Assembly: GCA_013115125.1 (NCBI GenBank)
Contig: JABANN010000032.1
Location: forward strand, 62,001 to 114,642
Direction of reading: 5' to 3'
DNA: 52,642 bases
From: Perkinsus olseni
Lineage: Eukaryota
Both the position numbers and the translations under genes were made by a program. Position 1 is the first letter of the stretch. Each line of letters opens with the position of its first letter. The notes under the pieces are model-generated. The model had not been told where the DNA came from, did not search any database, and worked only from the letters and a program-made list of their open reading frames with translations. This document shows, one piece after another, positions 7,513 through 50,999 of this stretch.

Positions 7513-7534
7513 ATTATAGTCTATAATTTATAGA
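7513..7534. repeat. 22-nt scar X1-7/revcomp(X)/X2-8, X=ATTATAGA (perfect)
   Basis: ATTATAG TCTATAAT TTATAGA. Confidence 0.85.
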
Positions 7535-7944
7535 TTCAAGATGCCGATTCATGACGCGTTCTGCCGGCCGACGCTGGCTCGGATTCAGAAGATTTCCCGA
7601 GAGCAATCACTCAGCTCTGCCAGCAGCCTTTTCGACTTTCTGGCGAGCTTCTGGGAGTGTTTCGACCAAAGCGCGCAGCGGTGTATGCCTAGTACGGTTG
7701 CGATGAATCAAATCTGCCACGCCCATTACTACTAACAGTGTCACTTTCACAATTGGAACGCGAAGAGGAATCGCCTTCCCGGTATCATCCTCTGTCCCAC
7801 GGCGCAAAGCTCTATGCATCATAGCCTGACTAGCTTAGAAGATACCGGTGGCTGCTATTCCTACGTCGTTCTCGAATACTTTTGTTAATGTTTTGGTTTG
7901 GTATCCATTGTTTCATTGTTAGTCTTTTCATTTGCTCTGTAGAA

Positions 7945-9708
7945 ATGCTTTCACTCACGTTGGCTCTATTGGCCTCGGCCGGTCTGAGCGCAGCGGCCCC
8001 TTCTGCTCCTCGTGATCGTCTAGATCATGACCATTGTACAGCTACTGCTGTTGATTGTGCTGCCACCGCTGACGGCGGGTGCATCGCTGCGACCAGTGCC
8101 GATGGAAGTCCTCTTGATTTCCGAATGGTACACGTCCCTCCGAAGACTTATGGGCCAGGCGAGAAGAGAGCTGTCTACAAGCAGTTTCAAAACTACCCGA
8201 GGATCGTCGATGCCTCTCGAGCCTCCAGCTACGCCCCGATCTCCCCTGACCAGAAGCCCAGTGTCCCCATCGGGTATATTGACATGCCTGAAGGGACAAC
8301 TTACGGCTACTGGGATGCCGCTTATGGTGTTATGAACGAAGCTGGTCTGTCCATGGGGGAGAGTAGTTGCAGCGGCCGTTTGAGTTCTGTTCCGAGAGGA
8401 GAGGGTCCGAACGGCAGCGGTGCCTTGTTCTGGGTCGGCGAGTTGTCTGATATCGCCCTTGAGGTTTGCTCAACCGCCAGATGTGCCATACAGACTATGG
8501 GTAAGCTCGCTGAGGAGCACGGTTTCTATGGTTCTGTTGGTGTGAAGGAGGCTGGTGAGGCTTTGACCATTGCCGATGGTACGGAGGTCTGGGTCTTCCA
8601 CATCCTGGCTGATGACACCGCCGAAGGTGCGGTGTGGGCGGCTCAAAGGGTCCCCAAGGGTCATGCGACTATCGTCCCGAACGTCTTCGTAATTCGAGAG
8701 ATCGACCCTACCGATGGTGACAACTTTATGTTCTCCGACAACATCTTCGATATCGCCTTGAGACTTGGTTGGTGGAATGGTGAGGGTCTTTTGGACTTTG
8801 CTGCCACGTACAGTGTCAGTGAGTACAACAACCCTTATTACTCCGGTCGTCGTGTGTGGAGGGGTCTCTCTCTTTTCGCCCCTTCGCTCAACCTTGACCC
8901 CACCCTTGGCGTCGAGTGGGACCATCCGACTTATCCCTTCTCAGTGGAGCCCGATGAACCCGTCACCATCGACTTCATGAAGCGTCTCTACAGAGATCAT
9001 ATGGAGGGAACTGCTTATGACTTGACTGATCATGTCGTTGCTGGCGGTCCCTTCAAGACTCCCAACAGGTATGCTGGTGGACGTGCTGAGGCTACTTTCC
9101 AGCACGGTGCTTGGGAAAGGGCAATCTCTCTTTACCGTACTATGTATTCTTACATTGCTGTTACGTACAAGGACTACAATGTTATTTATTTCGCCCCCAT
9201 GACCCCTCATGCAAGTGTCTACATTCCTATTATTGTCAAACACGATCAGACTGTCAATTCTATCCCTGCTCTCGAGTATGCTTGGCAGGGTGAGTTCAGC
9301 AAGAAGTCTCTCTGGTGGGCGACTGAGGCTGTCTCCAACGTCATGGATCTCAAGTACATGTACATGATCAATGACGTTAGGAAGGCTCAGTACGAGATCG
9401 AGCATCAAGTTGATGTGATGATGGCCACCCAAACCCCTGATGAAGTTGAGTCGCAGATGGCTGACTTCGGCGACTATGTTACCGAGAAGTGGCTCAATCT
9501 GCATTATACTCTTCTTGGGAAATATCAGAATGGTTATTCTGATTGGGGTTACACTCAGGTTGGCTATGGTCCATCAACTGAGTGGCTTCGTGCAGCTGGC
9601 TTCCAAGACTTCCAAGCCACACCTGAGCAGTTTGCTGAATTGAGACTTCGTTATAAGACCACTCAGAAGGAGGCCGATGAGATCCGTGATTCTGCATTGG
9701 GTGCATAA
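7945..9708 (+). CDS. Secreted peptidase family C69 (dipeptidase A/secernin-like Ntn hydrolase), intronless
   Basis: 587-aa ORF from the ATG at 7945 with signal peptide MLSLTLALLASAGLSAAA. Contains a candidate N-terminal nucleophile in HCTATAV, plus YGVMNEAGLSMGES, TARCAIQTMGKLAEEHG, GEALTIADGTEVW, WAAQRVP...VPNVFVI, YSGRRVWR and WERAISLYRT. A T-rich tract and AG precede the ATG. Confidence 0.9.
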   Translation: MLSLTLALLASAGLSAAAPSAPRDRLDHDHCTATAVDCAATADGGCIAATSADGSPLDFRMVHVPPKTYGPGEKRAVYKQFQNYPRIVDASRASSYAPISPDQKPSVPIGYIDMPEGTTYGYWDAAYGVMNEAGLSMGESSCSGRLSSVPRGEGPNGSGALFWVGELSDIALEVCSTARCAIQTMGKLAEEHGFYGSVGVKEAGEALTIADGTEVWVFHILADDTAEGAVWAAQRVPKGHATIVPNVFVIREIDPTDGDNFMFSDNIFDIALRLGWWNGEGLLDFAATYSVSEYNNPYYSGRRVWRGLSLFAPSLNLDPTLGVEWDHPTYPFSVEPDEPVTIDFMKRLYRDHMEGTAYDLTDHVVAGGPFKTPNRYAGGRAEATFQHGAWERAISLYRTMYSYIAVTYKDYNVIYFAPMTPHASVYIPIIVKHDQTVNSIPALEYAWQGEFSKKSLWWATEAVSNVMDLKYMYMINDVRKAQYEIEHQVDVMMATQTPDEVESQMADFGDYVTEKWLNLHYTLLGKYQNGYSDWGYTQVGYGPSTEWLRAAGFQDFQATPEQFAELRLRYKTTQKEADEIRDSALGA

Positions 9709-10333: not shown

Positions 10334-13300
10334 ATGAGATACAGCATAGTTCTATTCACCCTTTGGCGCGGTGACCCGTGCGAGGGCTGGACACCGGGAA
10401 GTAGCTCTCTAAGTTGCGAGGCTGGCCCCGAAGAGTGGACTACTCTACGAAAGTCCTTCTATCGACTTTACTTCACTGAGGGTAGCAGAGAAAGCTCTAG
10501 AGAGGTCGTCGCTCTTACTGAGGAGCTGACGGAATACGCAGGCAAGCCGAACCGGGAATCTCTTCTCACGGAGCAATACCGCCTTGATCACGCCATCAGC
10601 TATTAGACCTTTGCTGCAGCCAACATGCGCGTCTCGTCGCACATGCTCTGTGTCGACTGGTCCCGATTTCCCAACCGTTATAACCTGAATAGGGGGATCA
10701 TGGAAACCGCATATAGTGGTGTAATAGGTGCGTGTCCTCTCGGTTACATCACCGCCCGGATGACCTCACTGCAGCTGGTCAACGCCCCCTCTGAAACGGA
10801 GAACACATTCGATGAAGTCGAAGACCTTCTACGTTTTATCGACAATTACAACCCTCCGGACATTGTCTCCTCCGGTTAGCCGAATAGCACTATACTGAGG
10901 CGCGATCCTCTTTGGTCAGGCTGGCCTTTCTATCGAGCTCTACGCGAGCTCCGTATGCGCTTCGCCGAGGTCTTTCAAGGTCGGCACAACACATCGGTTT
11001 GTTCTTCGTCCGCGGCAATTGCCTTCCGGGAGTATATGGAGGCGTTGTTCATTTCAAGGAGATACGTTGGTAGGTTAAACTCCGAGGGAAAGGCACTTAT
11101 CACCGCGGTCACTCAGGTCCATCGGTCGTAGCGGCTGTAAGCAGTTTCCTCCTGGAAATGGACGCCGCGTCCCTAGACGAATCCGCCTGTGGTTATCTGG
11201 TCTCTGCGGCGTATCTCGCTCTGGCCGTTGATCGCTTCCCTACCTTCGACGATCATGTGAGTCCCTTACCACGATTGACGTTCTTGGAGGCGCTGCTTGG
11301 TCTTCGCTGCCTTGCTAGGCTCCTCTCTCTAGGTTCCAGAGCTCCTCGGTATGGCATCAACTCCACCGCCGCAAGCCTCTGATTTGCTGATAGATGCCTC
11401 AAAGGAAGCGCAGTTGCTCATCCACATGCTGGGCGAGGTCGAACATGCATATTTCACTTTCCTGGTAGCACTCAATGCATGAATGCATGCCCCGGCACTT
11501 GACGCCAAAGCTCGGCATTATTTGTTGATAACCTTGTCTCTCAGTAGCTCTACTCCAACGCGCTGTATACTCCCTCGGACCCCTCTACAAGGAAAGCCGA
11601 GGCTTATGCGCGCCATATGGTGTCTGAGAGCGAGCATGGAAGGGACCACGGGGAACATCAGCAGTGGAAGAGTGGCGCTTGCTTGGGTGAGTGAACGGCA
11701 GGCCTTGTCAGCGCTAAGGAGGGCTTGCTCGAGTGACTCGAGTCGCGTCGCCATGCCCTGTTGCTGTCAGTGCCTCATGCCACTACACCGACTGGCAAGT
11801 GTAACCCTTATGCACCTATTGCTCACACTCTGAAGCGGTGGAGGTCCACGGGAATCACTCGAGATGAAGTCAGAATGGCCATGAAGCAACGAGCCGATCA
11901 GAAAACTATTCTCATCACCGTCAAGGACAATGTTCTCTACTTCAGTGTTCCAGTACATTCGCATTACTTCGGGGAGGTGAGTTTCCGAGGGGATCTTCCG
12001 TCGTCGTCAACCATTGACTCTTCACCGTCGCTCGTTTCTTCAGGTTGTTCGACACGACGAGCTGCTCTGTCTGGTCACCCATTTCCTCAAGCTCTTCTCG
12101 CTCACCTCGCTGCCTGACCTCGAACTCGCCCTCAACCACGGCGATCTCCCACAAATTAGGAAGGCCTTCAACAAGCCACCATTTCATCACTTCAATGATC
12201 GGGAAGTAAGGGGAGACTACTCAAGGACGTGCTAACCTCTGTTCAGGCCACCATACCAGTCCCGCTGTTCTCGATAGCGACGTCAGACGACTTCTGGGAC
12301 ATCCTCTTCCCGAACGTTTGTCGACCGAAGCTGGTGAACATGTCACGGGCAGATAACAACGCTGAGGAGCTATCCTGGCAAGATAGAGCCCCGAAGGCCA
12401 CGTGGCGTGGAACTGACCGTGGAGCAGTTAACTGGTTCACCGGCTTCGACCTGGACGGCTTGCATGGTAGGCCGACGTGTCTTTCTTTTCGAAGTCTCTG
12501 CGCCGTCTCTTCAGCTCGACTAGAAAGCCGCCCAATAGATCTTCTGTTCATCGAAATCGTGCAGCACCTTATTAAACTAATTGCCGTGAAGTTCGTGCCT
12601 CATTTTAATGTCGCTGGTGCTGGCGGCTCGATGGACTTTCCAGGTACCCGTTCCCTCCGGCAAATAGTAAAAGATTCGAGCTCCAGCGAGTTTGCTGATG
12701 TCAAGTTCCTCGAAGACGACCTGACCGACTCTAGCGTGGCCGCCAGCGATCCCAACTTCATCCCGATGGATCATTCAGCTCGCCAGTGGAGATATCTTCT
12801 TGACATACCAGGTAGAGCTCAGTTGATGGTTGAAGTGGCGACATGAATATTATTACGCTTGAGAACACTGGGACTTACTTGAAGCGCATTACTGAGTGCC
12901 ACTCAAGAGCGTTCTACGGTAGAACGCTTTTGAGTGGCACTTTACTGAGTAGAACTTCTACCAGGACTATTGGTCGGAGGATCATAACACAGCTTCTGAT
13001 ATCACGTGTATACATACCAGCCCGCGTGCTCGGCAGTGGCGAGTCAGCATCACCATCATAATACGAATCCTAGGTAGGGACTCTAGGAACCCCGGAATGA
13101 TTCGGGCCGAATCCTAGGCTACGAAAACGATACGAATTCTAGTTTGTCATACATCTATGCTATCAGTGAGTACTACACAGCTCTGTCGGACAGATTCCGT
13201 CCATCGTGATGCGGTGGGGCAGTACTCCTGGCATCACCTGGAGTCGGAGAATTTCGAAGTCTCTTGGGAAGATACAACCCCGCAGGGAGGCAGCGCGGAT

Positions 13301-15298
13301 GATCCTCCTGAGGTCGTCATCGCGTGCGATGGCTAAGCGACCCTCCCGCGCTGTTAGAAGCTTCCATGGTCGGCGCAGGGATTCAAACTGCAAGAGGGGA
13401 GCAGTTGGCTGGCTGGTGGACTCGAGAAGATATACCGTCCTGAATGTCGTCGGGTTCCTTCCTGAAGTTGAGAGACGCGTCGGCGAAAACCTTCGTCAGT
13501 CGATTGGTAGCAAGCGCTCGCCAATGCATCGAGCTGGTGCCGTCCTCGGGGCCGCCTATCACGGTGATAGTATCACCGAGATACAGATGATCCTATTACT
13601 AGCCAGAGCGGAGGTCGCAGCGGCCTTCAACTCGAAGCCGAGAAAGATGACATTAAGTGCTACAAAGAAATTCCTTCTATCCCGTGAGGGAAGGAACTCG
13701 CTATCATTGATAAAGCGACTTGTAGCCATGAGCTTTCGCTTCTACTCGCACATTGAGCTGCGACGGAGCCACGATGATGAGCGGACCGGGAACAAGGGCC
13801 TTTAGAGTAAGGTTCTCCGCAACGGCATTGGTCAGGTGACATTCGTTCACTGCAGCGCCCACCGACTGGCGTTGGTGGCGAAAACGGTCGCGGATTGCCT
13901 CCAGTCAAGGGTTGAAGCTGTTCTCGATAGTGTGCAAGAGCTCTACGCAATCTTCGCTCGATCCAACAAGAAGTCGGTCATTCTCGAGGCATCACTGAGG
14001 TATGGAGCACGAAAGGGGCTTGTTGGGTGATGCTGGTAAACATCCAAACGCGGGGACTGACTAGGAATGAATCGCCTGGCATATCTCCACCCTGAGGGAG
14101 GTTCATCTAATCGTATTGCGACGCCTGGCGAATCGCGCGTTCACTCCGCCGAAGGCGTGTCCCTTCGCCAAGGCAACTGGAACTCCTCCAGGCATCCTTG
14201 ATGTACGAACAGCTAGCTTGCTATCTTTCACGATCATTAGTAGAACTTACGCAGATTTTATATCTGGGGCTGCGTGATAGGCAGCATCACTACCGGTCCG
14301 TTGTTGAGTTGCACGATTCCTGCAGTAGAAAACCGCTAGGAGCACTGAACGGTCAAGAGCTCTCCTGTGCGGCGCAGTGCACAAATCGCGCTGGGTATTC
14401 GGATGTGTGTCAAGTGAGGTCTGAGCGATAACTTTTCGCTGATGAGCGACACCAGTCTTGCATCGCTACTTCCACCCAGCGCGTGTGACGGCGAGGAATG
14501 CCCTAACTCTTAATGGTAGAGAGCGGGGCCGGGCAGTGCAGCTGGCACCGCACTGTGCAAGGGAGGCACTTCCGCAGTGGCGTGTAGCTTGTCGAGGCTC
14601 TCATTCCTCAGGAAATGGCTACTCCGGGTCGCTCAAGCAGAAGCTGACGTCGGGTGCACTCGTTCTTCCCGTACGACAGGAAATTCAAGGCGTAGCGAGC
14701 CCTCTCCACGAGCACTTCTATGCTGGTCTCCAAGATAAAAAACACGTCCTCTTGGTTGAGTGCGACGAAGATGCCTGCGACGTAGATAAGAAAGTGAGTT
14801 TGTTAGCAGTCTCGTAACGCGCGGATTCATTAGCCGATTTTTTGTCCAGAGGTTCTCGACCTGATCATTCTCCCCGATGCTCATCTGCACTCTCCAGAAG
14901 AGATTTACGGGAGCCCTGAGAAGAGTCTCTTCTCATGGCTCCTGTAAATCAGCTCATTACTCGATTCCATCTCTCTGGAGCCTCATGATCGAGAGTCCGT
15001 AATTCTTCCTTGTCCGGCTTAGGTGCAGTTCGCTTTAGCCAACGACGCCGAAGCGCGCCAGACGGTTGAACACGCAAACTCGTATATGGCGAGGTTCGAC
15101 CACTACTCCCTGTGCTACACTTGGAGGCTCTTACAGCTTTACAGCGACCTCTTGCGGTACCCTCTCGAGGACGAGCCTCGGAACACAAACCCCACAGTTC
15201 GGGTTCACCGGTACGCGCCACAGCATCTGCCGACCAGGGCAGAGGAAGAGGCTTGGCGTGAAGCATGTTTACAGGATATGGATAATCATTCAGTCTGA
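10334..15298 (+). CDS. Glycosyltransferase family 90 (CAP10 / POGLUT-KDELC-like), multi-exon
   Basis: Motifs LPDLELALNHGDLP, PLFS...DILFP, WQDRAPKATWRG. RYLLDIP(G) (donor at 12812) splices to (G)NGYSGSLKQKLTSGALVL...HEHFYAGLQDKKHVLLV (acceptor at 14611). Last exon FALANDAEARQTVEHANSY...YTWRLLQLYS, stop at 15298. Start uncertain. Confidence 0.85.
12895..12962. repeat. Long double-foldback scar, X=GTTCTACC
   Basis: 23-bp arms (one mismatch) around a single G at 12918, filler TTACTGA, then GTAGAA-C-TTCTACC. Confidence 0.8.
13092..13113. repeat. 22-nt scar, X=CCCGAATC (1 mismatch)
   Basis: CCGGAAT GATTCGGG CCGAATC. Confidence 0.55.
13200..14100 (+). pseudogene. Degenerate hAT-superfamily transposase remnant inside the GT90 intron
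   Basis: LSCDGATMMSG (about 13753-13785, catalytic DGA..M.G motif), then after a frameshift and stop TFVHCSAHRLALVAKTV...VQELYAIFARSNKK (hAT CxxH signature). Lies inside intron 12812-14611. Confidence 0.75.
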
Positions 15299-15358
15299 TT
15301 GTTTCCATCTTGTGTGTCTTCGCGTTCAAGTTGAAGGACTCACCGTCTGGCTCGACTC

Positions 15359-15915: not shown

Positions 15916-16072
15916 CCCTAGAGCTGTCAACTCGGGCTGAGACGGGTATTCTGCATAAGAAAGAGCTGGGTGGCGCTTGGCCTACCTCTGTCGTGGATTG
16001 ATTCTACTTATGACAGTCTCTGGGTTTACTCGATGCTCAGGCGACCACGGACCCGTGGCTGAGTCGAGGGCG

Positions 16073-18529: not shown

Positions 18530-19630
18530 ATGCAGATTCTAGCTTGCATCCTATACAAGTATGAACCGGACAAGGCCACGGAGGTGGCGACATTCTATGA
18601 CCTTCACAAAATATCGTAATACGGGGTGGTTGGGAGGGCTTCCATGGGGAGGGCTCTAAGGCGGCCCACAGATACTTCCAGCGGAAGACTGTGAAAGAGT
18701 TCATCAAGTTTCACGCCCGAGCTATCGTCTCTCGAACTGCCAAGGGGCAGAGGCAGAGCGTTCAGTTCGAGCAGAACATCGGCAAGTGTCATGTGTAGGT
18801 GTTGGTGCTGAAGCACTGGTTAATTGCAGCTGATGTGCTCAGGTATGTCGCGCCCGACGGACTAGGAGCTGCCTGCCTCACGGACGGCGAGTATCCTATG
18901 CGCGTTGCTTTCGCGTTCATCAGTGAGGTAGTAGGGTATCGCCGTATGTTGGGTATCGTAAGCCATGTTAAGCATACTACGCAGTGCCATGGTGGCACTG
19001 CCATCCTGAGTAACAACTTTCATTGACGGGAAAACGCGGTTACAACGGTATTTCCATGCGGCGATCGTCTGTCGCCTTCCTGGCGTACCTCTCATCTCAT
19101 TTGCTCTTCTCATTTCGGATGGCCGCCTCAGTGAGTTGGAAAAGGAAAGATGTGTTTTCGCTTCAGTTGATGCGAGGGTTCGAGACGAAGCATCCTGTAT
19201 CGGAGTGGACAAATGTTAGAAAGGACACCAAGTGATACTATGGGCGATTGCGCTTCTGTTGTGACTATTTGCTATGATCTTAGCATCGACTATCCTGAGG
19301 GTGATGAGCTGATGGAGAAGTTCCAAGACCCAAGCCAGGCTGATAAAATCGCCCAGATTCAGAAGGAGCTGGATGATGTTAAGGGCGTCGTCATTAAAAG
19401 TACTAGTGATCAACTTTTCGATAACCGACAAGAACGTTTCCGTGCTCTGCAGGCATGGATGACATTTTGCGAAGGGGCGAAACACTCGACAGTCTGATGC
19501 AGAAGTCGAATGACCTCAGCAATACATCGTAATAGCTCGGGGCCATCAGAACGTCGTCGAGGATGCTGTTTCTAGATACCAATTCTACCGTACTGCCAAG
19601 AAGAACAATCAGTGCTGCAAATATTACTAA
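18530..19630 (+). CDS. YKT6: Longin R-SNARE Ykt6
   Basis: Exons MQILACILYK / YFQRKTVKEFIKFHARAIVSRTAKGQRQSV...KCHV / YVAPDGLGAACLTDGEYPMRVAF / KFQDPSQADKIAQIQKELDDVK / MDDILRRGETLDSLMQKSNDLS / YQFYRTAKKNNQCCKYY*. C-terminal CC lipidation motif and no transmembrane helix. Confidence 0.93.
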
Positions 19631-28191: not shown

Positions 28192-28213
28192 GCTGAGGAC
28201 CTCAGCCTGAGGC
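28192..28213. repeat. 22-nt scar, X=GCTGAGG(C/T) (1 mismatch)
   Basis: GCTGAGG ACCTCAGC CTGAGGC. Confidence 0.7.
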
Positions 28214-28581: not shown

Positions 28582-28603
28582 CCTTGAGGCTCAAGGCTTG
28601 AGC
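28582..28603. repeat. 22-nt scar, X=CCTTGAGC (perfect)
   Basis: CCTTGAG GCTCAAGG CTTGAGC. Confidence 0.85.
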
Positions 28604-34790: not shown

Positions 34791-34989
34791 CGACGGCGAC
34801 AAACGCTGCTACTACTGCCCATCGCGATAGCTTTCACACAGCTAGAGGTGTCAGAAGAAAGACCACACCCATGATTGGACTCACAAAACACAACTCATTT
34901 CCATGTCCAGGGTAACTCGTTGGTTGACCAGCACCATTCGCTTGCCAGAAACAACACCAATCACTTTGCAGTACAAGACCACGAAGCGA

Positions 34990-35560
34990 TTAGTTGGTCT
35001 CCTCAGCGGCCATCCTGGCGTTCCTGTTGAGAACCTGGACGCCGATCTGATCGGCGCGCTCGATGATGGCCTTGCGGGTGCGGCCGGAGAGGTTGCTGGC
35101 GAGGACGGCAGCGTACTTCTCGTTGTGCATCATCAAGAGCTCCATGTCAGCAGGGGACTGAAAACGGCCAAGTCAAATTTTATCACCGAACCAAGCCCAA
35201 CCAAAAAGCAAAAAACGTGCGGAATGACCCCTCCACCAAGGCGCTCTATTATTACCCTGATCTGGAAGGCGTACTTGCCGTTGGAGAGCTGATAGCGGGT
35301 GCGCTTGTCCGAACCGTAACCGATGTTAGGCATCAAAGGGGTGCCACGGAAACGGCGACGGATACGGGAATCGATACCCTTAGGCTTCCTCCACGATTCC
35401 TACAGAAAAAAAAGATACTACCACTCCACACGCACATCACACGACTAGATTCAATTCAGCCCTTCCCACTAATTACCGGGACACGCATGAAGTTGTCAGA
35501 CTGGTGGCGTCTGAACTTGTTGGTCTTCTTCTTCACGATTCTCTTCACAGCAGGCGCCAT
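34990..35560 (-). CDS. RPL32: 60S ribosomal protein L32 (eL32), 3 exons
   Basis: [28 protein letters not shown] / [36 protein letters not shown]... / [51 protein letters not shown]. Confidence 0.97.
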
Positions 35561-35759
35561 AGTGCTTATTAACGATGACAAGTACAACCAACTGGGCCGG
35601 GCTTCAAAAGGGGAAAATCACGTGACCAACTCAAGCGTGATCGATTTCATGGGCGAGCGAGATTCGAGAAAAGCGGAGCGACGCACCTTCCTCCCTCCTA
35701 GCTCTCATGACCCCCAACTAACTCCCCCCGCTTATGAGAACGAATTAAACAAGTTAAAT

Positions 35760-37127
35760 TTACTCCTGCGGGAAGCCAGCAGGGCTACGCTTCCGTCGGA
35801 CACGACGCTTTCGGTCGACGCCTGTGAAGTCCTCCATCACAGCCTCGGTGAGCTCAGGCCACTCCCTTATTAGATCGACCAGCATGTCCACATCGCCTTG
35901 TGCAGTGTGAACCCCAGGGGCCCAGCCGCCGACCTCATAGTGGTACAGCGAGGACAATGAGAAGCCGTTGGAGAAGCCCCCGGGCCGACCAACTCGTCTC
36001 GCTGCTATTAACGGGTCGATTTTCCTCATCAATCGCCATCCCAGCAGATGGTACTGACTGAGCACGCGATGGTCAAATAGCTTTCCATTGAAGGCTGCCA
36101 TCACCAGTGGCCCTCGACGAGCCTGGTCTCTCAAGAAGGGCACGACGGTCTCCCTCCAGGCCTCGGGAAAAAGTGGTAGGCCGACGCCGAAGGGCTTCAT
36201 GCCGTACCCCGAGACCTTGCAGAACTTCTGAGCACTGCTGGACAGCGCTGACCATTTGTACGGCGACCGACACTCGACAAACACTCCCTCGCCGGTGAAG
36301 AAGTTACGTGCAGCTAATTGAATGACCCTGGTTCGATCCAGCCACCTGAGATCTTCTCTGTCACCAAACACCGCAGGACTGTCATGGACCGTCTCTAAAT
36401 CGTAGAGTATCAACTGCTTAGTCGGCCACCGCTCTCGCCTCTCTCTATTCTCAAGGAAAAATTCCTTTCGCCGCGAGAGGACTTCAACGGCCAGTTGAGT
36501 AGAGGCTGCCGTTTCCAGCAGAAGCCACAGCCGGAGCTGTGCCCTCGACGACCTGACTTGACCTGACCGTAAGAGCCTCTTCAAGTGACTCTCAACCTTC
36601 AACTGAGCCAAGGGATCGGAAACGCCACGACTTAGATCGTGTTGAACCCGCCGAATAGCATCCCAGCACTTCATCTCACAGACGACAGACTCTCTCCGTA
36701 TCCGAGAATAGTCAACACGCATAGCCTTTATGGTAGCATCGACCTTGAGGACAGTGTCAAGGTCACCAGTTGCCAAGGCGCATTGCCGTACCAGACTTAG
36801 TTGCATTGGATGCTTCGACCAGTTAGTTAGGCCTTGAAGGTAACCATTCGCCTGCCTTGGTGACTTTCCCAACACCATAGAATGCAGGCAGTAGGCCAAG
36901 TCGTCTACCATAGCGATTCGTGGGAACGTCGCAAACTGCAATGGCTCGGGAGCCCTCAGCATCATCAGCAGCCGGGGGAAGCTTCTAGCGTGACCAAGCT
37001 CGATAGGCTTGTCACTGACCTTCGCCTGGAGTAAACGCTGCCACCGCAAAACGCTCTGGCCGGCGATCTCGACGCCGAAGGCCTGAGATGGCAGTAGAGT
37101 GCCTGCTGCTGGGGGTCGTAGTGCCAT
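35760..37127 (-). CDS. DEDDh 3'-5' exonuclease (DnaQ/TREX-like) with long N-terminal extension, intronless
   Basis: ExoI LYDLET and VIQLAA, ExoII AFNGKLFDHRVL, IDPL...SLSSL, ExoIII HTAQGDVDML. Probable start MALRPP at 37127; the ORF is open to 37334. Confidence 0.85.
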   Translation of the reverse strand: MALRPPAAGTLLPSQAFGVEIAGQSVLRWQRLLQAKVSDKPIELGHARSFPRLLMMLRAPEPLQFATFPRIAMVDDLAYCLHSMVLGKSPRQANGYLQGLTNWSKHPMQLSLVRQCALATGDLDTVLKVDATIKAMRVDYSRIRRESVVCEMKCWDAIRRVQHDLSRGVSDPLAQLKVESHLKRLLRSGQVRSSRAQLRLWLLLETAASTQLAVEVLSRRKEFFLENRERRERWPTKQLILYDLETVHDSPAVFGDREDLRWLDRTRVIQLAARNFFTGEGVFVECRSPYKWSALSSSAQKFCKVSGYGMKPFGVGLPLFPEAWRETVVPFLRDQARRGPLVMAAFNGKLFDHRVLSQYHLLGWRLMRKIDPLIAARRVGRPGGFSNGFSLSSLYHYEVGGWAPGVHTAQGDVDMLVDLIREWPELTEAVMEDFTGVDRKRRVRRKRSPAGFPQE

Positions 37128-40769: not shown

Positions 40770-41836
40770 TACGCTGAGTGACTTCGAATTGAATTCAGTC
40801 AACATGATAATACGCAGTAGCCTTGGGGTCACGCATTTCGCACTGGGAAGAAACTCATATCCCATCTCCAAGCGTAGCGTAAAATGAGGAGCTACGAATC
40901 TAGCAGCACTGTGGCGCATACTGTCTGCCCGGATGAGGGAGAAGAAGCCGCCCATAGCCGCATACCCGAGCGGCTCGGGTTGTCCGCCCTTTGTTGACAA
41001 AGGTACAACGATTGTGATAGATGCAACGCAAACACCAGTATAATAACTGTCCTTATATGCAGGATTACGCGAGCTCACGGGACTTCTTATATTCGGTACT
41101 TTCATATGCTTCAGCAAAAGGCTCAAGACTGACTAGCTTCTCGAGCGTCTTTGACCCTTCTGTTTCATCTAGGCCCAAATTATTCCTCAGCAGGTCATAT
41201 GGCTGAGGCCGAGACCAGTGCCAGCATGAAAAATTGGACTTCCCCGGAGTTCAGAGCATCCCTTGGAGCGCTCTCTACCGCCCATGGGGCTGGGAGATTC
41301 CCGTATGGCAATTTGAAAAACCTTCATGTAGACACGATACTGCCCGGACTTAATACTCTGGTATCGGTGAGTGAGGCTAGCTCATCACTCATGGCTAGGA
41401 GTAGCAAGGCGTCGCTGATATCCAACATCGCATATAACTCAGGAAACCCTGACATGCTTGAAGATCTCGTCGATCTTCTCTTGCCGAATTGATTGCTTCT
41501 CGCAAGGCTCTTCTAATCCACTACTGACGTATAGCGGAGTTAAGACCACGCGCTATCGCTAACCTTGGACGACATAATACTTCTGCACTACAGAATCTAC
41601 AGAGTCTTCGGCTTCCTGTTCCTGGGTACCGTTACACCTTCCCAGAGGCCAATGAACCATAATGGTTCAACCATTCCATATCTCATCAACAGCTGAACTG
41701 TTCCTCGCTTGGCAATATCATAGTCTAGTAACTTCTTCCATACTGGACTACTACTACCAGCACTAGTGGCAATGACCCGCAGAAGCGATAATAGACAGAG
41801 CGATCCTGTCACTAACGTTCCCAATGTCAACCTCAT
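40770..41836 (-). pseudogene. Probable secreted hypothetical protein gene, frameshifted by a 14-nt scar
   Basis: Signal-like MRLTLGTLVTGSLCLLSLLRVIATSA. Removing the scar at 41654-41675 gives YGMVHWPLGRCNGTQEQEAEDSVDSVVQKYYVVQ ending at a GT donor. A downstream exon-like stretch reads YDLLRNNLGLDETEGSKTLEKLVSLEPF. Confidence 0.4.
41654..41675. repeat. 22-nt scar, X=GAACCATT (perfect)
   Basis: GAACCAT AATGGTTC AACCATT. Confidence 0.85.
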
Positions 41837-42092
41837 GTTCAAACTGGAGGGAGAAAACCAGCCGGGATCGTGTATAACAGATAGTATCTCCAGGACCATC
41901 ATGGTCCAACCATGCCACAGTGGTGGCACCTGCACCATCAAGTGCTCGGAGCATTATGCTCCACGCACAACATGTCGTATATGCTCCACGATATTGCTCC
42001 ATTCAGTGTGAGCGTTAGCTGACTAATAGCGGCAACCTCGTTGGCTGAAGGTGAATTAGAACCGAACTAATTGACTATTGACCCCAGTCACC

Positions 42093-42114
42093 GAAGCAAG
42101 TTGCTTCAAGCAAC
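42093..42114. repeat. 22-nt scar, X=GAAGCAAC (perfect)
   Basis: GAAGCAA GTTGCTTC AAGCAAC. Confidence 0.85.
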
Positions 42115-42135: not shown

Positions 42136-44630
42136 CTAGGCGCTAGCGGGGGTGACTCGGGTGAGCAGCCTTACCCTCATCCTCTCCCTGAACTCATTAA
42201 AGCTTCGAGGGCAACGACACTCATCGAGGTCATCAAGGTCCTTAGCCAGGGATTTGAGGCTGCCTTCGAAGGGCCGTCCGATCGGCACGCCGTTCTCGGT
42301 AGCTCCGCTCAATAAGTTGCACAGCCTCTGAGGGAGCAGAAAAAACTTGCACGCCAATAATCTCAACTAGCAGAAACAATCGATTAGAAAAAATCTTGCC
42401 AACGCATATGATACAGAGGATCTGTTACAGATCGCCTCCAGGTGATCAGGAATGAATTCAGCACTCAGTGTGGGCATACGTTCCTCAATGACAGTCTGTC
42501 ATTGTGGAACGTATGCCCACATCCCTCACCTTGGCTGCTGCACGCCAGCTCTGCTGAAAGCTCGCATTCCCGAGGGCATTGTAGAGTGCCTTGAGTATCA
42601 CTGGGAGGAGCCGAGGCTCTCCAATTGACGACAATAGGCTGTCAACCAAGGCCTTGAAAATTTCAAATTCGCCCCTGCCCGCAGCGTCCATGATGTTGGC
42701 GAACCTAGCGCCGTGCTGGCTACGGAGGTGTCCCACTAAACTCTTCGCACGTGGGCTTACCTGAAGAACGGGAGAGAGTAACAAAGGAGAGCACAGAATA
42801 GGAAACTAGGGCAGAGAAGGATGAAAGCTCTATGAATCTAGTGACCTGCCGCTGGCGAAGAGAAAACGATCAGCGTGTTAGTCTCCTGTGCTGAGTACCC
42901 CGACCTTACAAACAGCCAACTGCCGCCCAGCTGCTGGTCTGTCACCAGGCCGTAAACGGCCGAGAGCGAGCGAGCGAGCGAGATAGCCACGAACGGTCGG
43001 GCGCACGAAGTTTCGGACACATCATGCAAGCTGCTTGTGACGAGCAGGTACCATGTAGTACAGAAGCATAGTGTTCGATAGGCCAATATTTAGCCAACAA
43101 GCTAAAATGTTTTTTTCATTCTCTAATAAGTCGCCATCATACACTTCTCTACACCATGAGACGATACATCTCCTCAGTGCCGCACTGACAGTTCTGCTTT
43201 TTTCAAGATATTGAATGGATGACACAGACGACGGTAGTGCGACACCGATTCAAGTGGGCTCACCTCGAAGGGCCGAGTGGAAACCGCTCCACCACAGTGA
43301 GCCACAATGTTGCATAAACGTGAACGGACCCCCGCGAGCCCGTCCAACTCGATGAGCTTATTTAAGGCCTCAATAGCTCCGTCGACGTTGTCATTGAGCA
43401 ACTGCATATCCCCTAGTATTCGATATCCGTTCTAACAACAGGGAAACAGCGCTACCGAAACTTGCGCCAAGAACGGTAAGTGCAATTCTTCGCAGGAAAG
43501 GCTGCGACACGACAACGTCTTACCTTCCAGCGGAGCCCAAGCGATCCGTCGCATCCGCCAGAGCCGGCGGGCGACTGATCTTGGCCATCTATCCAGCCTA
43601 TATCAAGTAACAGTTCCGCGAGGGAGCACCTGAGCAGGCTCCTGAGCATAGTAAGTAGCTAACGTGGGAATGAATGATCTCGAACTGATGCCCGAAGACT
43701 AGCAGCCATACCTGGCTCCATGTTGCTCATTCACGGGGATCATGTTCGGCTCCGCCGGGCTGACACGAGCTGACAAAAACAAGTGGGAGATTTCGCATGC
43801 GAGAACGAGTAAGGCATCAGACGAAGGGGGTGGATGAACTCACGCCTGCTCAAGACCTCCTGTTCTCCTTCGTGGCCAGTTTGGCCCTCCGATTTGACCT
43901 CGGTCTTAACGACTTCTCTATCGACCGGCGGTGGCATCCCAACGCTGCCGTCCGCAGACGCTCCAGTAGAGGCCTGACCTAGTGAGCAGGGGCTTGTTCA
44001 ATGGAACAGGACCCTGGTGTACGCTCACTTTGCCCAGCCTGAGACGATCTTGGGGTCCACTCCGCAGCCGTTCTCTTCTTCTTAGTGTCTGGTTCTTGCG
44101 AGCAGCCAGAAGCGGATGAGGTCACGGGAGCTTGGGCAGATTCAGTCGAGCTAGGCAAGACCATCGGGGATGCATTCTTCTCCACGAATCGAAGGATGAG
44201 TTTATCGCCGTCTCTCACACCAGAGGCACTGACCTGTGCAAAACACTAACCACCGAATCGGAAGTCTTCACATGCCAAAACTCTGATCGACGGCAACCGC
44301 GATGAGCGCTGCCCACCGAATTGCGTCGCTTCGGCACGTCCATGCCCTCCATCGGTCCCTCTAGCCAAGTGAGCCTCCAATCGCCTTTAGGATAATAGCC
44401 AGCGGTCTTGCTGCCATCAAGGCAGAAGTATCTCCGAGCGGCGAGTACGAGATGGCACGGTCGACTTCTCCTGAAAACAGTGTTGCGAAATTATTTCCGG
44501 AGAGGACATGAATACGGGTCGACGATGAACTCTTTCGCCGACTGAGCTCGTTCAGCATATTGTTCACGGCATTCGATGTTAACACGGAACGAGCCTCCCT
44601 CGGGAGTAGCGATTGGAGGCGACGGCGGCA
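42136..44630 (-). CDS. TPR-like family paralogue B, multi-exon
   Basis: YRILGDMQLLNDNVDGAIEALNKLIELDG...LCNIVAHCGG; HGARFANIMDAAGRGEFEIFKALVDSLL...LYNALGNASFQQSWRAAAK; ATENGVPIGRPFEGSLKSLAKDL. Confidence 0.65.
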
Positions 44631-44781
44631 TCTCAGACGGCATCAACCGACAAGCGGGAAACAACTGTAGGACCGCTTGGAGGTACGCGAAAGGCTAGCA
44701 TGTGCGGCGACTGTGACAGACATATGTGACATGTCAAACTCCGAGGGACAGCTCGACTCTCAGGGGGCTAAGCATTCCTCG

Positions 44782-44803
44782 ACAGTGTAACACTGTCAGT
44801 GTT
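44782..44803. repeat. 22-nt scar, X=ACAGTGTT (perfect)
   Basis: ACAGTGT AACACTGT CAGTGTT. Confidence 0.85.
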
Positions 44804-45919
44804 GAGTCAACACCCTGCATGCCCGATGGCAGGTGGCCCATACAGCGCACCGGCAACACATTAGGAGTCATTCAAATCGGAAACTTCGGAAGTATTCGCC
44901 TTAAAAGTTACCCCTGTAGCAACTCAACTCGCGCAAGTCCTCGTAGCGCTTTGGTTTTCAGGGCCCCAGTGCAGCAGTGCATGATAAATTTCTTGATTGG
45001 ATACGAGAGGGAACTATTGCAGCAATTGCTACGATAGGAGTGCAGCGAATTCTAGGTCCTGGTGGAATCCCAATGCAAGAGTGGCCCCAGGACTTCGCAG
45101 AAGTCATCAAGCATTCTTCGGCAACGTCGGCTGCATTTGACTGAGTACTCTGCAAAGGACGGGGGACAGCTGGATGGAACCGATAGAGCAACCTGAGCGA
45201 AGCAGGCAACACTATGAAGTCCGCAACGCGCCACCGCATGGAGGCCGTGCAGATCTGAAGCAGGTGCAAGAACTGTGGAAGTTTCATTTCACTGTGACAG
45301 ACTGACATTTTGAGGCTGCAACTTACGGTCTTGCAGTTAAACTCGCACCGTGACTAATCACAGATCATAATGAACGATCGCCCTGCAGTGTGCATGCTGA
45401 GAGCTGTCAACGTGAACTCAACCGTCCACCAAAGAAACTCGTCTGCAGTTCTGTAGACCGATTAATTTGGAAACATCAACCGGCATAGCAAGGTTTCTGC
45501 ATAGCATGAAGCCCTGAAGTCGAGCTGCCCCTACGCGGGCATTTTCCATATTGTAAATGCCGCGGCGACCCAGAACGAGCCTTCCGAAGAGACCAACGTT
45601 GCGGGGCTGACGGCAACCAAATCGGTTGAGCTTTCAATTCGTTGAGCAGCACCGTTCCACCTTGTTTTGGCAATCCCCAACTGGCCTAACGTGACCCGCT
45701 GGCGACTATATCCATCAGCATCCAAATAAAGTGAGCAATACATATACCTTCCATGCCGTACGGAGTTCATAGCCTCGTTCCAAACACACATTCTGTGCGG
45801 TCAGTGAATTATTGACATAGTATGTCGGTCACATCTATCAACTACCATCTGAGTTGGAGGCGGTTGATAATTTGCAATGCTTCAGTGAAGCCACAATCAT
45901 CTCCTAATCCACTATAACC

Positions 45920-45997
45920 AACACTAGTGGTGTTACACTACGCAGTGTAGACTATGCTGATACTTCAGCTGAAGGCCTCCACTGTGGGGGCTCCACA
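45920..45997. repeat. Two adjacent 22-nt scars, X=AACACTAC and X=CCTCCACA (1 transition each)
   Basis: 45920-45941 AACACTA GTGGTGTT ACACTAC; 45976-45997 CCTCCAC TGTGGGGG CTCCACA. Confidence 0.7.
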
Positions 45998-46115
45998 AGA
46001 GTCCTAGGATCATTGTCAGGATACCCCCAGTCCAGGACATTCTTTCTCAAGGTACCCTTGATGTCTGTGAAATTCCGATCCAAGAACCACACATGCTTAT
46101 TCACATCATACTTCT

Positions 46116-46184
46116 AGAAAATAGGGTACTACTGAAATTCAGTAGTACTCCATTTTCTGAAAGTATGAAATTCACTAACTGAAT
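46116..46184. repeat. Long foldback scar, X=TACTGAAT
   Basis: 21-bp arms (19/21) around a single A at 46137, then ATTCACTA-ACTGAAT at 46170-46184. Confidence 0.65.
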
Positions 46185-46995
46185 AATATCAGCGAAGGTT
46201 GGCCGGATTCAACCGATCCTACTGATTCTAGTGTCTCCATCTTCGAGACTCATTTGAGTTTCAATTCTGCTGATGACAAGAATTCCATGCCTGGGAGATC
46301 AATAAGAAAGAAATGAGCCCTGAGATCCAGGCTCTGGACTTCAGAGCGCGGGCCACGCAACTCGGCGGGTTTCCGCAACTCTTGACCACTGATGCCGCGA
46401 TAGGGGGGCGCGGATTGACAAGGTAAGTCTTACATGCATCCTTCTCTTGAACTCCCCGAATGACCGAGGAAATCCATGCCCAGCGGGGTCTTCGAGATCC
46501 CTGGCCACAGATTTGAGAGCCTCTTCGAAAGGCCTTCCAATTGGCATCCCGTTCTCTGTCGCCTCGATAATGACTCTGATCAGTCTCTGAGGGGAATTTC
46601 CGCATTCGATCAAAAACGCGCAACACTCTCTATACCTCACCTTAGCTGCTGCATGCCAGCTGCGGTGACATCCCGCATTTCCTAGGGCATTGTACACCCC
46701 TCCACACATTCTTAGCATACATGGTGCGCAAGTCATAATTCCTCGAAGAAGTCGAATTTCGCTCTGATATTTGAATGTCAAAGCTTTAATAACACTATCA
46801 CTAACCTAGCAAGATCTCAGACTCCCACTCCACGGCTACTCCGATTTGCACACTCGACGCACTCAGAGACCTCCACATATTCTTAGCATATTTCTGAAGC
46901 ACCCTAGGATTTTGGTCATAGGGCACCGTCGAAGCACCCAAATTGCCCCGCCATCGGCCAACACAATCACCCAAGCCCCGTCATCGCTTCGCGTT

Positions 46996-48030
46996 ATGTC
47001 CAAGATCAAAAACCTGACTCCAGCAGATAAGGCGCGTATCAGCGCCATGCACGCGGAGAGAGGTCCAGATGGTCGTCGTCGTTACACCCAAAAGGAGATT
47101 GCTCGAGCTCAGCAGGTCAACCAAGCTACGGTGAGTCGAGTAGTGAAGGCCCGGGGGCCCCGGGCCGGGGCCAATGTGAGCCTGTATCTAAGCGGGGACC
47201 GAAGTTTAAAATGGATGACCGGACCCGACGCCGTGTTGCTCGCTACTTCTTTGACAACTGCGGGGTGTCTACCGGTGATGCAGTGAAGGAGCTCGGTCTG
47301 CAAGTCTCACCAGAGACAGTGCGCAGGTTTATTCGGAACGAGGGAGCACAGTATGTTAAGCTAAAGACTACTCCACCGCTGACTGACCGGCACAGGGCTG
47401 CTCGCACGAGCTTCGCGCGGCACCACCTTCAGGCTTACACCGATTTCCGTAAGTGGATATGGAGCGACGAGAAGCGGTTCTGCCTGGATGGTCCTGATGG
47501 GCTCTACCATACCTGGAGCCTTCCTGCTAGTGCTGAGCAGCTCAAAAGCAAGAGGGCCTTCAAGGTGCGGTGGCATCATGGTATGGGGTGCGATCAGAGA
47601 CGACCATACGGTCGCTCTAGCAGAGGTTACGGTCCGCATGAACAGCGAAGTCTACCAAGAAGTCCTTTCTCGTCATCTATTTCCCTACTGGGAAGAGTTT
47701 CAAGACGAGGGTCTCACGTTTCAGCAAGATAATGCTCCGTGTCATGGGAGCAGGAGCACTATCGACTGGCTCCGTGAAAGAGATGTGGTCCCACCTTGTT
47801 GGCCAGCCTTGAGCCCCGACCTCAGCCCCATAGAAAATATATGGGCCTACATGGTAAAGACCCTGTACGGCCCAAACAAACCGATTTTTCGGACTCTGGG
47901 GCAACTTAGGGCGGCTGTCTTTCGAGCATGGGCTCAAATTCCTTCTGAGGTCATCACAAGCTGTACCAGCTCTCTCCCGAAGCGACTTACTGAAGTTCTG
48001 GCACTGCAGGGGAAGAAAACAAGTTATTGA
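46996..48030 (+). pseudogene. Tc1 DD34E transposase with two frameshifts
   Basis: HTH YTQKEIARAQQVNQATVSRVV, then VSPETVRR, WSDEKRF, GGIMVWGAI, FQQDNAPCH and WPALSPDLSPIENIW (34 residues between the second D and E). Frameshifts near 47150-47171 and 47567. Confidence 0.92.
47150..47171. repeat. 22-nt scar, X=CCCGGGGC (perfect), inside the Tc1 transposase
   Basis: CCCGGGG GCCCCGGG CCGGGGC; collapsing it to X restores the reading frame. Confidence 0.85.
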
Positions 48031-48322
48031 ACATCTAATGAGTAACTCGAATCTGATATTATCATCGTAGTTTGCCTTTTGAATGAGTGACACAACTAGT
48101 ATGCTAAGATTATGTGGAGGTCTCTGAGTGCGTCGAGTGCGTAAATCGGAGTAGCGATGGAATGGGAGTATGAAACCTTGCTAGGTTAGTGATAGTGTTA
48201 CTTAGACTATGACATTCAAATATCAGAGCGAAATTCGACTTCTTCGAGGAATTATGAGTTGCGCACCATGTATGCTAAGAATGTGTAGAGTGGCCTAATT
48301 ATCACTGGGAGGAGCCGGGGCT

Positions 48323-48382
48323 CTCCAGTTGACAGCCTATTAGCGTCGACTGGAGTCCAGTCGACGCTAATAGGCTGTCAAC
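48323..48382. repeat. Perfect 27-bp-arm palindrome with 1-nt centre (long scar, X=CTCCAGTC)
   Basis: GTTGACAGCCTATTAGCGTCGACTGGA-G-TCCAGTCGACGCTAATAGGCTGTCAAC, overlapping CTCCAGT at its left edge. Absent from paralogue B. Confidence 0.9.
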
Positions 48383-50999
48383 CAAGGCCTTGAAATTATC
48401 AAATTCGCCCGTCCCCGCAGCTTCCATGATGTTGGCAAACCTAGCGCCGTGCTGACAACAGATGTGGGTCACCAAGTCCGTCGCACGCCCGCTCATCTGC
48501 AAACGTAAAAAAGCACTGTGTCTATGGAACTGACTGGTTCAGCCTAGCTCAAGAGCTGAAACCGTTCACAGCGGGCGAGGCCGCCTAGATCGATGTATCC
48601 TTCTACTCTCGTTTGAACGAGCAGCCGAAAAGAGTGTCACGATTTTATCGCTCATGCGAAGAACGTACGCTGAAGAAGCCACTCGCCCGAATTGGCTCAC
48701 CTCAGAAGAGCATATTAATCCACCACTATGAGCCACTATGCTGCACAACCTTGAACGAACCAGCGAAGGTCCCTCCAACCCGATAAGATGATCGAACATT
48801 CTGATAGCCTCAGTAGTATTGTCGGTAAGTAATAGCATATCCCCCAGTACCCGATAGGCGTCCTAAAAGTACCACTATGATTTGCACTATAGTTTAGAAA
48901 TGATAAACGAAAGCCTGTGGCATCTGATATCGCAGAAGGCAGCTTACTAGGGCATGACGAGCGTCCGGTTCCGCCCATTCTCTACCCCGTTAGCAGACCC
49001 ACCTCGACCTTTCGGAGCCCTCCAAAGACCTCTCTAGGTATACCAGAAGGTATGCTGGAGTCAGTAGGCCTCGGCCCTTGGCCAGCCATCCATCCCATCT
49101 CAGTAAGTAGCTTTGCAAGAGTGTCCCTGATGGCAGATGCGCCGACGCGGGCATGTAAGCTCCATGGTGGGACGAGCTGCTCGGGGCGTTATTTCTCGCC
49201 GTCTGAGAGCGTATTCGCCTGTCTCACCTGCCTTTGTCCAACCCGTTCCGGGGGATGCCATTGAGGGCCGGTCCCGACAGGTCCGTACTCTCTGAGGCAG
49301 CGAAAGCTGATGCTCATTTTTAGGATGACAAAAGCTCCTCACGTCGTCCGCTAGAGGCCTCTTCGCTCTCTTTATAGCCAGCCCATCTCTCAGGCAAGCC
49401 CCCGGCTTCCATGCCACTACCACATCCCGCCTGTCGCACCTTACAATTGTCATCAATGGCTACTACGCTGGAGGCGCGACCTGACCCATTCTTGTTCAAG
49501 CAGAATAAACCGAGCGACCAACCCACTCCGTTGAGTCCCTGGCGGCACGGTGCTCCCTCGTCGATGAGCCTCCATCGCTTGAACCCTGAGCCTCTTAGCG
49601 TTCGGTTCGATCGATCTTCTCGAGACGGGGGGCGGCAAAGCAACTCGAAGGAAACGAATAGCGGAAAGAGAATAACTATCTCTTACTAGGAGGATCGTCC
49701 TCTTGGACGCATCGAAGGATTAGTCGGTCGCCGTCCTTCACACCGCATCTACCGATCTGCGGCACGTACGAAACGTAGCAGGAGAAGCTCTGGGGCTCTC
49801 CGAGCTTCGGCGCCGAGCGTAATGATTTCTACCTACCCCTCCGCGGAGATCGAGCACGTCCATGCCCTTCCTCGGCCCCTCCAGCCAAGTGAGCCTCCAG
49901 CTGTCTTCGCGATACTGACAATCAGCTTTGGCGCCACTTAAACGGAAATATCTCCGGGCGATAGTCAGCAGATAACAGAGTGGGTTGCTCCTGATAACCA
50001 CGCTGTAGCTACGCAAAGGAGTCCTTCACTAGGACTTCATTACGCATGGATCGAGATCTCTTTAGTCGACTGAGTTCGTTGAGCATACTTCTCGCGGCAA
50101 TTAATATACACATGCAGTAGGCTTTCTCCGGAGTTACCACTTGGAGGAGGAGGAGCCATAGCGAACAGAAATAAAGTTGCAGTGGACTGAGGGCACTCAA
50201 GAAAGCTCCCGACACGAACAGATGAGGGAGTGCAAGACTGGGTACGCTCCAGCAATTTGCTGGCAGCAAAGTCTCAGTTGGGTGCAAGTCCCGGGAGGGG
50301 AAGACAACGGCTGGAAGATGAATTCTGAATAGAAGAAGGCCGACCTCAGCGATGATCTCGAGTAGCCGGTAGCTCGTGAGCAGTTGTCTTAAACCGCCAG
50401 GGCCTCCGCGTTGAGATGAAAGTGTTCAGAGACGGATTGTCGAGAGTTCCCATAGTGAAGCAGACTCGCGCCCATCAGATGAGGGTACCCGGGAGGAGCT
50501 ACAGTCGAGGGCGCGGAGCCTTAGTTCGAACATTGATGGACCTTGGGGGGCACCATAGAGAGTTTCTATTAGGAACTCTTGAGGATAGGATACAGAATTA
50601 GGGAAGGCATCCCGCAGAGGCTGGCTACCAATAAGCAAAGGGACACGGAGCGACTCCGTTGGAGTTGAACTGAGCCTGATGCAGGAAACAGTCTGTCGCC
50701 GATTCACAGATTAACCGAACGTACAAACCACTAAAGAGGAATATGATAAGAAACGAATCATAAGAACAACTTCATCGTCACCGAGTCATAGCATCGACAC
50801 CTCAGCGATCCGGCATAGTTCCTTGAGCTTTGCTTTGCACAACTTAGTGCACATAGCATGCATTCCTGGGCACGCCTGCTGCAGAGCTGAGGGCTTATCG
50901 AGGATGCTCTGAGAAGAGACAGACGAATCGCCGATGATTTATTGGCTCCCCCTTGAACATAGAGTGAAAATTGAAGCAGAGAAGAGACTCAATTCACCT

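Follow-up and report, generated by a model that had tools for sequence, protein, structure and literature searches.

In V(D)J recombination, which employs RAG and Artemis, hairpins are opened off-centre, and a palindrome is thereby written at the coding joint. RAG and Transib form hairpins without a one-base offset, their duplications comprise 5 base pairs (bp), and their palindromic (P) tracts are a few bases long. A closer parallel to the marks described below is found in the excision footprints of Ac/Ds, transposons of the hAT superfamily. According to two reports (PMC5873905, PMC1978519), these footprints contain P-nucleotide palindromes that are centred on the complement of the element-adjacent base and joined by microhomology. 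The same centring, and hairpin opening followed by microhomology joining, has been described for plants, budding yeast, and Candida. In PMC5873905, the Ac/Ds footprints are heterogeneous and short, with longest P tracts of 3 nucleotides (nt) in Candida and arms of at most 20 nt in yeast. Hermes, also a hAT element, generates an 8-bp target duplication and prefers the target nTnnnnAn (PMC10368747).

Here, we analyzed a stretch of 52,642 nt from Perkinsus olseni (assembly GCA_013115125.1, contig JABANN010000032.1, positions 62,001 to 114,642; hereafter, the window), which contains many copies of a mark that is defined by a rule rather than by a sequence. For an 8-base sequence X with the bases x1 to x8, the DNA reads x1-7, the complete reverse complement of X, and x2-8, that is, X[1-7]+revcomp(X)+X[2-8], which amounts to 22 nt and a net gain of 14 nt. 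These marks, which we call scars, were most probably left at the donor sites of a cut-and-paste DNA transposon, and the hAT superfamily is the best candidate. The scars share the palindrome centring with Ac/Ds, the 8-bp unit with Hermes, and the palindrome at the joint with V(D)J recombination, and they are unlike the products of RAG/Transib. They differ from the Ac/Ds footprints in that one full-length 22-nt product dominates, that arms reach 31 nt, that no intermediates occur, and that no element is in view.

The entire window was scanned for the rule with unit lengths of n = 3-15 and compared with 100 third-order Markov shuffles; for the mismatch classes, 200 such shuffles were used. At n = 8, 9 perfect matches were found, and the number rose to 15 when one mismatch was allowed and to 22 when two were allowed, whereas the shuffle means were 0, 0.01, and 0.19. 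Split into classes with exactly 0, 1, 2, 3, and 4 mismatches, the counts were 9, 6, 7, 14, and 32, versus means of 0, 0.01, 0.185, 2.09, and 17.2. The scar pattern is thus confirmed as real and highly non-random. As the counts of 14 and 32 exceed their shuffle means, about a dozen of the three-mismatch matches and perhaps fifteen of the four-mismatch matches are genuine, decayed scars. The 22 matches represent 21 separate places because the match at 13563 overlaps that at 13556.

The unit length was sharply defined. Perfect matches were entirely lacking in the window at n = 6, 7, and 9-15, and on a grid of n = 6-11 and offsets of k = 0-3 the only combination to stand out was n = 8 with k = 1; the matches at n = 10 and k = 3 were n = 8 sites displaced by one base. 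An excess over shuffled controls and a sharp peak at eight bases, both of which were to be expected from the first-pass annotation of this DNA, were therefore present. A small excess was seen at n = 4 (30 perfect matches versus 13.4 expected, shuffle maximum 21). At n = 5 and offset 1 there were 4 perfect matches versus 0.78 (shuffle maximum 4), and one of the four lies inside the scar at 47150.

The 22-mer can also be viewed as two overlapping palindromes with one central base each. Odd palindromes, with a centre of 1 nt and at least 7 nt in each arm, were tenfold enriched in the whole window (37 versus 3.8 in shuffles). With the same arm length, even palindromes without a spacer were not found anywhere in the window (0 versus 3.5), and palindromes with a 2-nt spacer were seen twice (versus 3.9). 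The offset-free hairpin and the 5-bp duplication of Transib/RAG consequently had no counterpart, given zero even palindromes and the n = 5 count cited above, and the even flank hairpin of Mutator-like elements likewise left no palindrome with arms of at least 7 nt.

The nine perfect scars are located at 6816-6837 (X = TGCGCGTT), 7513-7534 (ATTATAGA), 13556-13584 (CTATCACC, including a fourth arm), 28582-28603 (CCTTGAGC), 41654-41675 (GAACCATT), 42093-42114 (GAAGCAAC), 44782-44813 (ACAGTGTT, with a one-sided odd palindrome after it, centred on 44806), 47150-47171 (CCCGGGGC), and 50249-50270 (CCAGCAAA). All six perfect sites of the first-pass annotation (7513, 28582, 41654, 42093, 44782, and 47150) match the rule exactly, and the scan added those at 6816, 13556, and 50249. 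Single mismatches are present at 11728-11749, 13092-13113, 28192-28213, 41893-41914, and 41941-41962, and in the match at 13563, which together with the scar at 13556 gives three centres 7 nt apart. Two mismatches are present at 13181-13202, 18984-19005, 42412-42433, 43174-43195, 45920-45941, 45976-45997, and 50555-50576. Among the four sites that had earlier been described as one-mismatch cases, 13092 and 28192 were indeed of this class, whereas 45920 and 45976 have two mismatches each; the site at 50555 has the two mismatches that had been noted for it. The one-mismatch sites at 11728, 13563, 41893, and 41941 and the two-mismatch sites at 13181, 18984, 42412, and 43174 had not been noticed before.

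Next, we analyzed whether single palindromes could be assigned to the same rule. At each palindrome centre, X was taken as the seven adjacent bases plus the complement of the centre base, so that the partner should be x2-8 on the rightward side or x1-7 on the leftward side. The exact predicted partner 7-mer was found at 21 of the 37 odd-palindrome centres, in comparison to 0.03 in shuffles. Eighteen of these centres belong to the nine perfect 22-nt scars and the other three are 12918, 46137, and 48355; at centre 14926, the predicted partner was present with one mismatch. For the single odd palindromes at 5648, 16221, 24649, 34122, 35048, and 40972, the partner 7-mer was not found.

Four long palindromes, with exactly one base between arms of 23-31 nt, have their centres at 12918, 42495, 46137, and 48355. 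Three long-armed variants had been proposed at 12895, 46116, and 48323. These do not fit the 22-nt rule as it was formulated, but they do lie within long single-centre palindromes, which have arms of 23, 31, and 27 nt around the centres 12918, 46137, and 48355. Together with the site around 14926 they make up four long-armed scars, all of which resolve to an 8-base X and have the order x1-7, left palindromic tract, right palindromic tract, x2-8. The lengths of the left and right tracts are 24+7 nt (separated by 7 nt copied from the left flank), 6+24 nt, 32+8 nt, and 0+27 nt (with a 2-nt overlap at the joint).

In the scar at 12895-12962 (X = GTTCTACC), x1-7 occupies 12911-12917, the centre 12918 is the complement of x8, and the 23-nt left P tract extends over 12919-12941. 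It is followed by the copy of the left flank (12942-12948), the 7-nt right P tract (12949-12955), and x2-8, the exact partner 7-mer (12956-12962). The scar at 14889-14933 (X = ACTCTTCT) consists of x1-7 with one mismatch (14889-14895), a 6-nt left P tract (14896-14901), a 24-nt right P tract (14902-14925), the centre 14926, and x2-8 (14927-14933). In the scar at 46106-46184 (X = TACTGAAT, net gain 47 nt), x1-7 (46130-46136) and the centre 46137 precede a 31-nt left P tract, which reaches 46168; one base, an 8-nt right P tract with one mismatch (46170-46177), and x2-8 (46178-46184) follow. In the scar at 48323-48362 (X = CTCCAGTC, net gain 32 nt), x1-7 (48323-48329) overlaps by 2 nt with a 27-nt right P tract (48328-48354), and the centre 48355 and x2-8 (48356-48362) complete the structure. 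Intermediate products, with left and right P tracts totalling 4-7 or 9-16 nt, gave no match in the window, so only the fully annealed form of the short scar occurs; footprints with a total of less than 4 nt are indistinguishable from chance.

If the scars were gained at sites that previously contained a single X, this state should be recoverable elsewhere. Sequencing run X12 represents a divergent strain of the same organism, most pieces of which are 90-99% alike to the window, and the comparison was based on the listed 12 of 106 indel differences and the listed 40 of 1232 substitutions. A contig of this strain lacks exactly 14 nt at 41655, within the scar at 41654 (one contig, depth 33.3 of 33.3). 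In addition, X12 joins 46134 to 46187 with five letters in between, which makes it shorter by 47 nt, precisely what is predicted as the net gain of the scar centred on 46137. Within the window, a diverged paralog at 42.6 kilobases (kb) was aligned across the scar centred on 48355, and the alignment contained a gap of 32 columns, again the predicted net size. The fourth case is the scar at 47150, which is located in the transposase gene of a Tc1-like element. Alignment with the P. marinus homolog placed residues 3-64 in one frame and residues 63-196 in another, the switch lies inside the scar, and the window carries 14 more bases there than expected for a colinear transposase gene. Since it is the intact coding state that is conserved, these 14 nt were gained. 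Hence, a single X is the other state at four scars, as seen in four independent comparisons. Of the two kinds of allele that had been foreseen, single-X alleles were therefore found; an occupied allele (X-element-X) was not seen among the listed X12 differences.

The scars also decay by substitution. Among the listed differences, X12 changes at 41908 and 41942 each abolish the sole mismatch of the scars at 41893 and 41941, respectively, and therefore these two scars predate the split of the strains and their mismatches are later substitutions. Furthermore, RNA contigs from two other samples of two other studies (X7 and X8) contain the scars at 41654, 41893, 41941, 42093, and 47150 without any difference or gap. 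The scars are thus neither assembly artefacts nor spliced out.

From these patterns we infer an element, flank hairpins, and a repair route, as follows. Upon insertion, the element would duplicate 8 bp of target, X. Upon excision, the transposase would nick one base into each flank, and each flank's 3' end would be joined to the opposite strand. This fits the hAT hairpin chemistry reportedly described by Zhou et al. in 2004, in which Hermes is said to form hairpins on the flanks after a first nick one base into the flank. The left flank hairpin would then read x1-7, x8', x7' to x1' (primes denoting complements), with the complement of the lost x8 as its tip base, and the right flank hairpin would be the mirror form, with the complement of the lost x1 at its tip. 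The host would open the hairpins far from the tip, at a minimum distance of 8 nt and a maximum of about 32 nt, and thereby expose 3' tails, one carrying the reverse complement of X and the other X itself, so that the tails could anneal perfectly over eight bases. Trimming, fill-in, and ligation would yield x1-7, the reverse complement of X, and x2-8, a net gain of 14 nt including both complemented centre bases. The uniformity of the 22-nt product would be explained because any pair of opening points with overlapping tracts would yield the same product, and tails that were joined elsewhere would produce one-sided long palindromes, sometimes with short copied filler.

This derivation of the scar from the hairpins is our own, and its hairpin chemistry agrees with the Ac/Ds literature (PMC5873905, PMC1978519). 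The joining of opened hairpins through a shared inverted target copy had already been suggested, and this route predicts the 22-mer base for base, with the complements of x8 and x1 as the two centres. It also predicts the long-armed variants, the net sizes of which (+47 and +32) equal the gaps in the empty states. A 7-bp duplication, an even hairpin, or an element-derived centre base would give other patterns; even palindromes and other offsets were tested for and are absent.

We estimate the probability that the scars mark donor sites of a DNA transposon of the cut-and-paste type, with hAT as its most likely superfamily, at about 0.78. Several observations weigh against this interpretation. 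Known hAT footprints are heterogeneous and mostly short, whereas one product dominates here, and the palindrome centred on 42495 does not fit the excision model. Taken alone, the 14-nt gap in X12 could be a slippage deletion, and only the transposase case fixes the direction of the change. An occupied allele was not among the listed X12 differences, and when the window was scanned for an element flanked by a perfect 8-bp duplication and having terminal inverted repeats that match at 10 or more of 12 bases, one candidate was returned versus 0-1 in shuffles. A search of 25 ORFs (open reading frames) of the window against Pfam revealed no hAT domain and no Merlin or Mutator domain, a hAT transposase being marked by a BED finger, a DDE core, and a hAT dimerisation domain, and the sole transposon seen in the window is Tc1-like with a TA duplication. 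The nTnnnnAn consensus of Hermes and Ac was not present in the 25 inferred X sequences, which have T at symmetrised position 2 in 13 of 50 cases. Lastly, no report of hAT elements in Perkinsus was found in the literature, supplements being outside the search. The earlier proposal of hAT excision is supported, but because no occupied allele, no element with an 8-bp duplication, no hAT transposase, and no nTnnnnAn were seen, we infer the hAT family from geometry. The absence of the element from 52 kb is weak counter-evidence because a few mobile copies could write many scars over time.

The strongest rival, although it is unlikely, is that the same chemistry (8-bp duplication, offset flank hairpins, and annealing of inverted copies) was carried out by an element of another superfamily, i.e. 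a Merlin-like, a Mutator-like, or an undescribed one. The lack of the Hermes/Ac consensus in X would agree with this. Against a Merlin-like element counts that Merlin is not known to use a hairpin step. Elements of the Merlin type produce duplications of 8-9 bp, and ORFs related to Merlin are present in P. marinus, but the P. marinus copies are reported to have no detectable terminal repeats or duplications (PMC8101967). Dada DNA transposons are also known in Perkinsus (PMC3706591). The Mutator-like Muta1 combines 8-9-bp duplications with flank hairpins; however, its hairpin is even (43+43 nt) and precise excision accounts for more than 90% of its events in yeast (PMC5499845), whereas every palindrome here is odd.

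Replication template switching, i.e. quasi-palindrome mutation in which a few bases of the opposite strand are copied before the return, is very improbable. It yields inverted copies directly beside their source without any element, and the 7 nt at 12942-12948, copied from the left flank, do look templated. However, it has no fixed unit length and predicts a continuum, whereas 9 perfect matches were found at n = 8 and none at n = 6, 7, and 9-15. It also does not predict a single complemented centre base tied to an 8-base target, the 8-base X of the long-armed cases, or the symmetric target bias described below.

Still less probable is that the scars are functional hairpin elements or tiny hairpin-defined introns that are removed from RNA, comparable to the repeat-bounded non-canonical introns of Amoebophrya. 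The architecture does resemble a direct and an inverted repeat at the borders of 14 nt (PMC7789003), and removal of 14 nt at 47150 would restore the reading frame. Yet the X7 and X8 RNA contigs cross the five scars listed above ungapped, although the same runs show ordinary GT-AG introns at 31-35 kb; moreover, the site sequences are unrelated to each other, decay by substitution, and vary between strains. Hence, tiny introns were rejected because of the ungapped RNA contigs, and template switching because of the fixed n = 8. An assembly or sequencing artefact, e.g. palindromes from library chimeras, has a negligible chance and was rejected, since contigs from three studies (X1, X7, and X8) contain the same scars without differences, the divergent strain X12 has some scars and lacks one, and mismatched, evidently old copies exist.

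Returning to excision by a hAT-like element, a more far-reaching version can be formulated, which we regard as tentative and, taken as a whole, rather doubtful. In Perkinsus, hairpin-capped breaks would be opened almost only far from the tip, and the tails would be joined either through annealing over at least eight bases or through brief templated synthesis; opening near the tip and classical end joining would play little or no part. Each hAT-like excision would then produce a deterministic +14 mark, and the element would perhaps be rare, still active, and undescribed. A literature search for end-joining genes of Perkinsus gave only unrelated papers, and the paper on CRISPR editing in Perkinsus is silent on repair genes.

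The logic of the footprints is known; the novelty lies in the stereotyped product, the length of the tracts, the scar density, and the host. No published account of these palindromes was found in the genome and transposon literature on Perkinsus; Yu et al. 2004 and Lazarow et al. 2012 were outside the search and may report the same 22-nt product. The window implies an element with an 8-bp duplication, for which no Perkinsus report was found in the literature searched. The rule allows past cut-and-paste transposition to be read from a genome without homology, from marks that are invisible to repeat annotation, and if our interpretation is true, scars could be used to date and count transposition events after the elements have vanished. 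That one product dominates and that palindromic tracts are very long suggests that a perkinsid resolves DNA hairpins in an unusual way, which bears on break repair in this group, including breaks made in genome editing. The scars are mutagenic, as one of them breaks a transposase reading frame, and they could be used as strain markers because they differ between strains.

The confident scars occur at about one per 2.4 kb, a higher density than the one per 4 kb that had been estimated from the first sites. When decayed scars are included, the density is probably near one per kb; if this is true, it would translate into tens of thousands of scars genome-wide and a major source of insertions and frameshifts in the parasite. 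The distribution is uneven. Twelve of the 22 matches are in the region of 41.5-50.7 kb, which makes up 17.5% of the window (P ~1e-4) and is characterized by short ORFs only, diverged paralogous blocks, and a low RNA depth. In contrast, none of the 22 matches falls within the five longest ORFs, which together account for 19.9% of the window (binomial P = 0.008). The 25 inferred X sequences have a symmetric bias: G is found at symmetrised position 3 in 1 of 50 cases and C at x6 in 0 of 25, and G is favoured at positions 1 and 4.

At two places, a further odd palindrome is located 7-10 nt beyond a scar, namely at 13556-13584 and 44782-44813, which suggests repeated events at nearly the same target. 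In the second case, we read the palindrome at 44806 as the result of a second event, 3 nt away from the scar at 44782. The long odd palindrome at 42469-42521 (centre 42495, arms of 26 nt, without a partner 7-mer) is located at the edge of a paralogous block and adjoins a joint in X12. This strain joins 42515 to 42910 with five other letters, and thus has about 394 nt fewer; these nucleotides (42516-42909) start at the end of the palindrome and include a paralogous block. The region of 5600-6200 contains a cluster of short direct and inverted repeats with TTCTGAA/GAATCGATTC-like units, including the odd palindrome at 5648, and resembles a small satellite more than a scar.

The Tc1-like transposon occupies 46695-48283 on the plus strand (1.59 kb), is flanked by TA, and has 194-nt terminal inverted repeats that are 91% complementary. 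It is missing from the paralogous site at 42583. The Pfam domains HTH, HTH_Tnp_Tc3_2, and DDE_3 were found in three different frames, the transposase frame being broken at the scar at 47150 and a second time further on. The depth of run X1, from which the window probably derives, is about threefold at the left end of the element and several contigs break there, so the element probably is present in several copies. In X1 contigs, 46774 is linked to 48178 and 48205 is linked backwards to 46793, across other letters; the inverted repeats may therefore exist in another arrangement or allele. A paper on TRT, a family of Tc1-like elements (PMC5630946), is said to mention Perkinsus.

The window is nuclear DNA. 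Ribosomal RNAs, transfer RNAs, and Rfam families were not found in it. An ORF of 1467 amino acids was considered as a transposase and rejected, as it is single-copy and 100% identical to a hypothetical protein of P. olseni. An ORF for a C69 dipeptidase shares 99% identity with a fragment from P. olseni and 93% with P. marinus. At 11737-12846, two ORF pieces matched glycosyltransferase family 90 weakly and below threshold (at profile positions 5-49 and 103-169), and the scars at 11728, 12918, 13092, 13181, and 13556 lie within or just downstream of this region, which could represent either a gene with many introns or one disrupted by scars. The RNA contig depth at 34800-36140 is about 108,000 in X7 and about 11,000 in X8, versus tens to hundreds nearby, and this region represents a very highly expressed gene on the minus strand. 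A minor joint in X7, from 35005 to 35074, is not of the GT-AG type and skips the odd palindrome at 35048.

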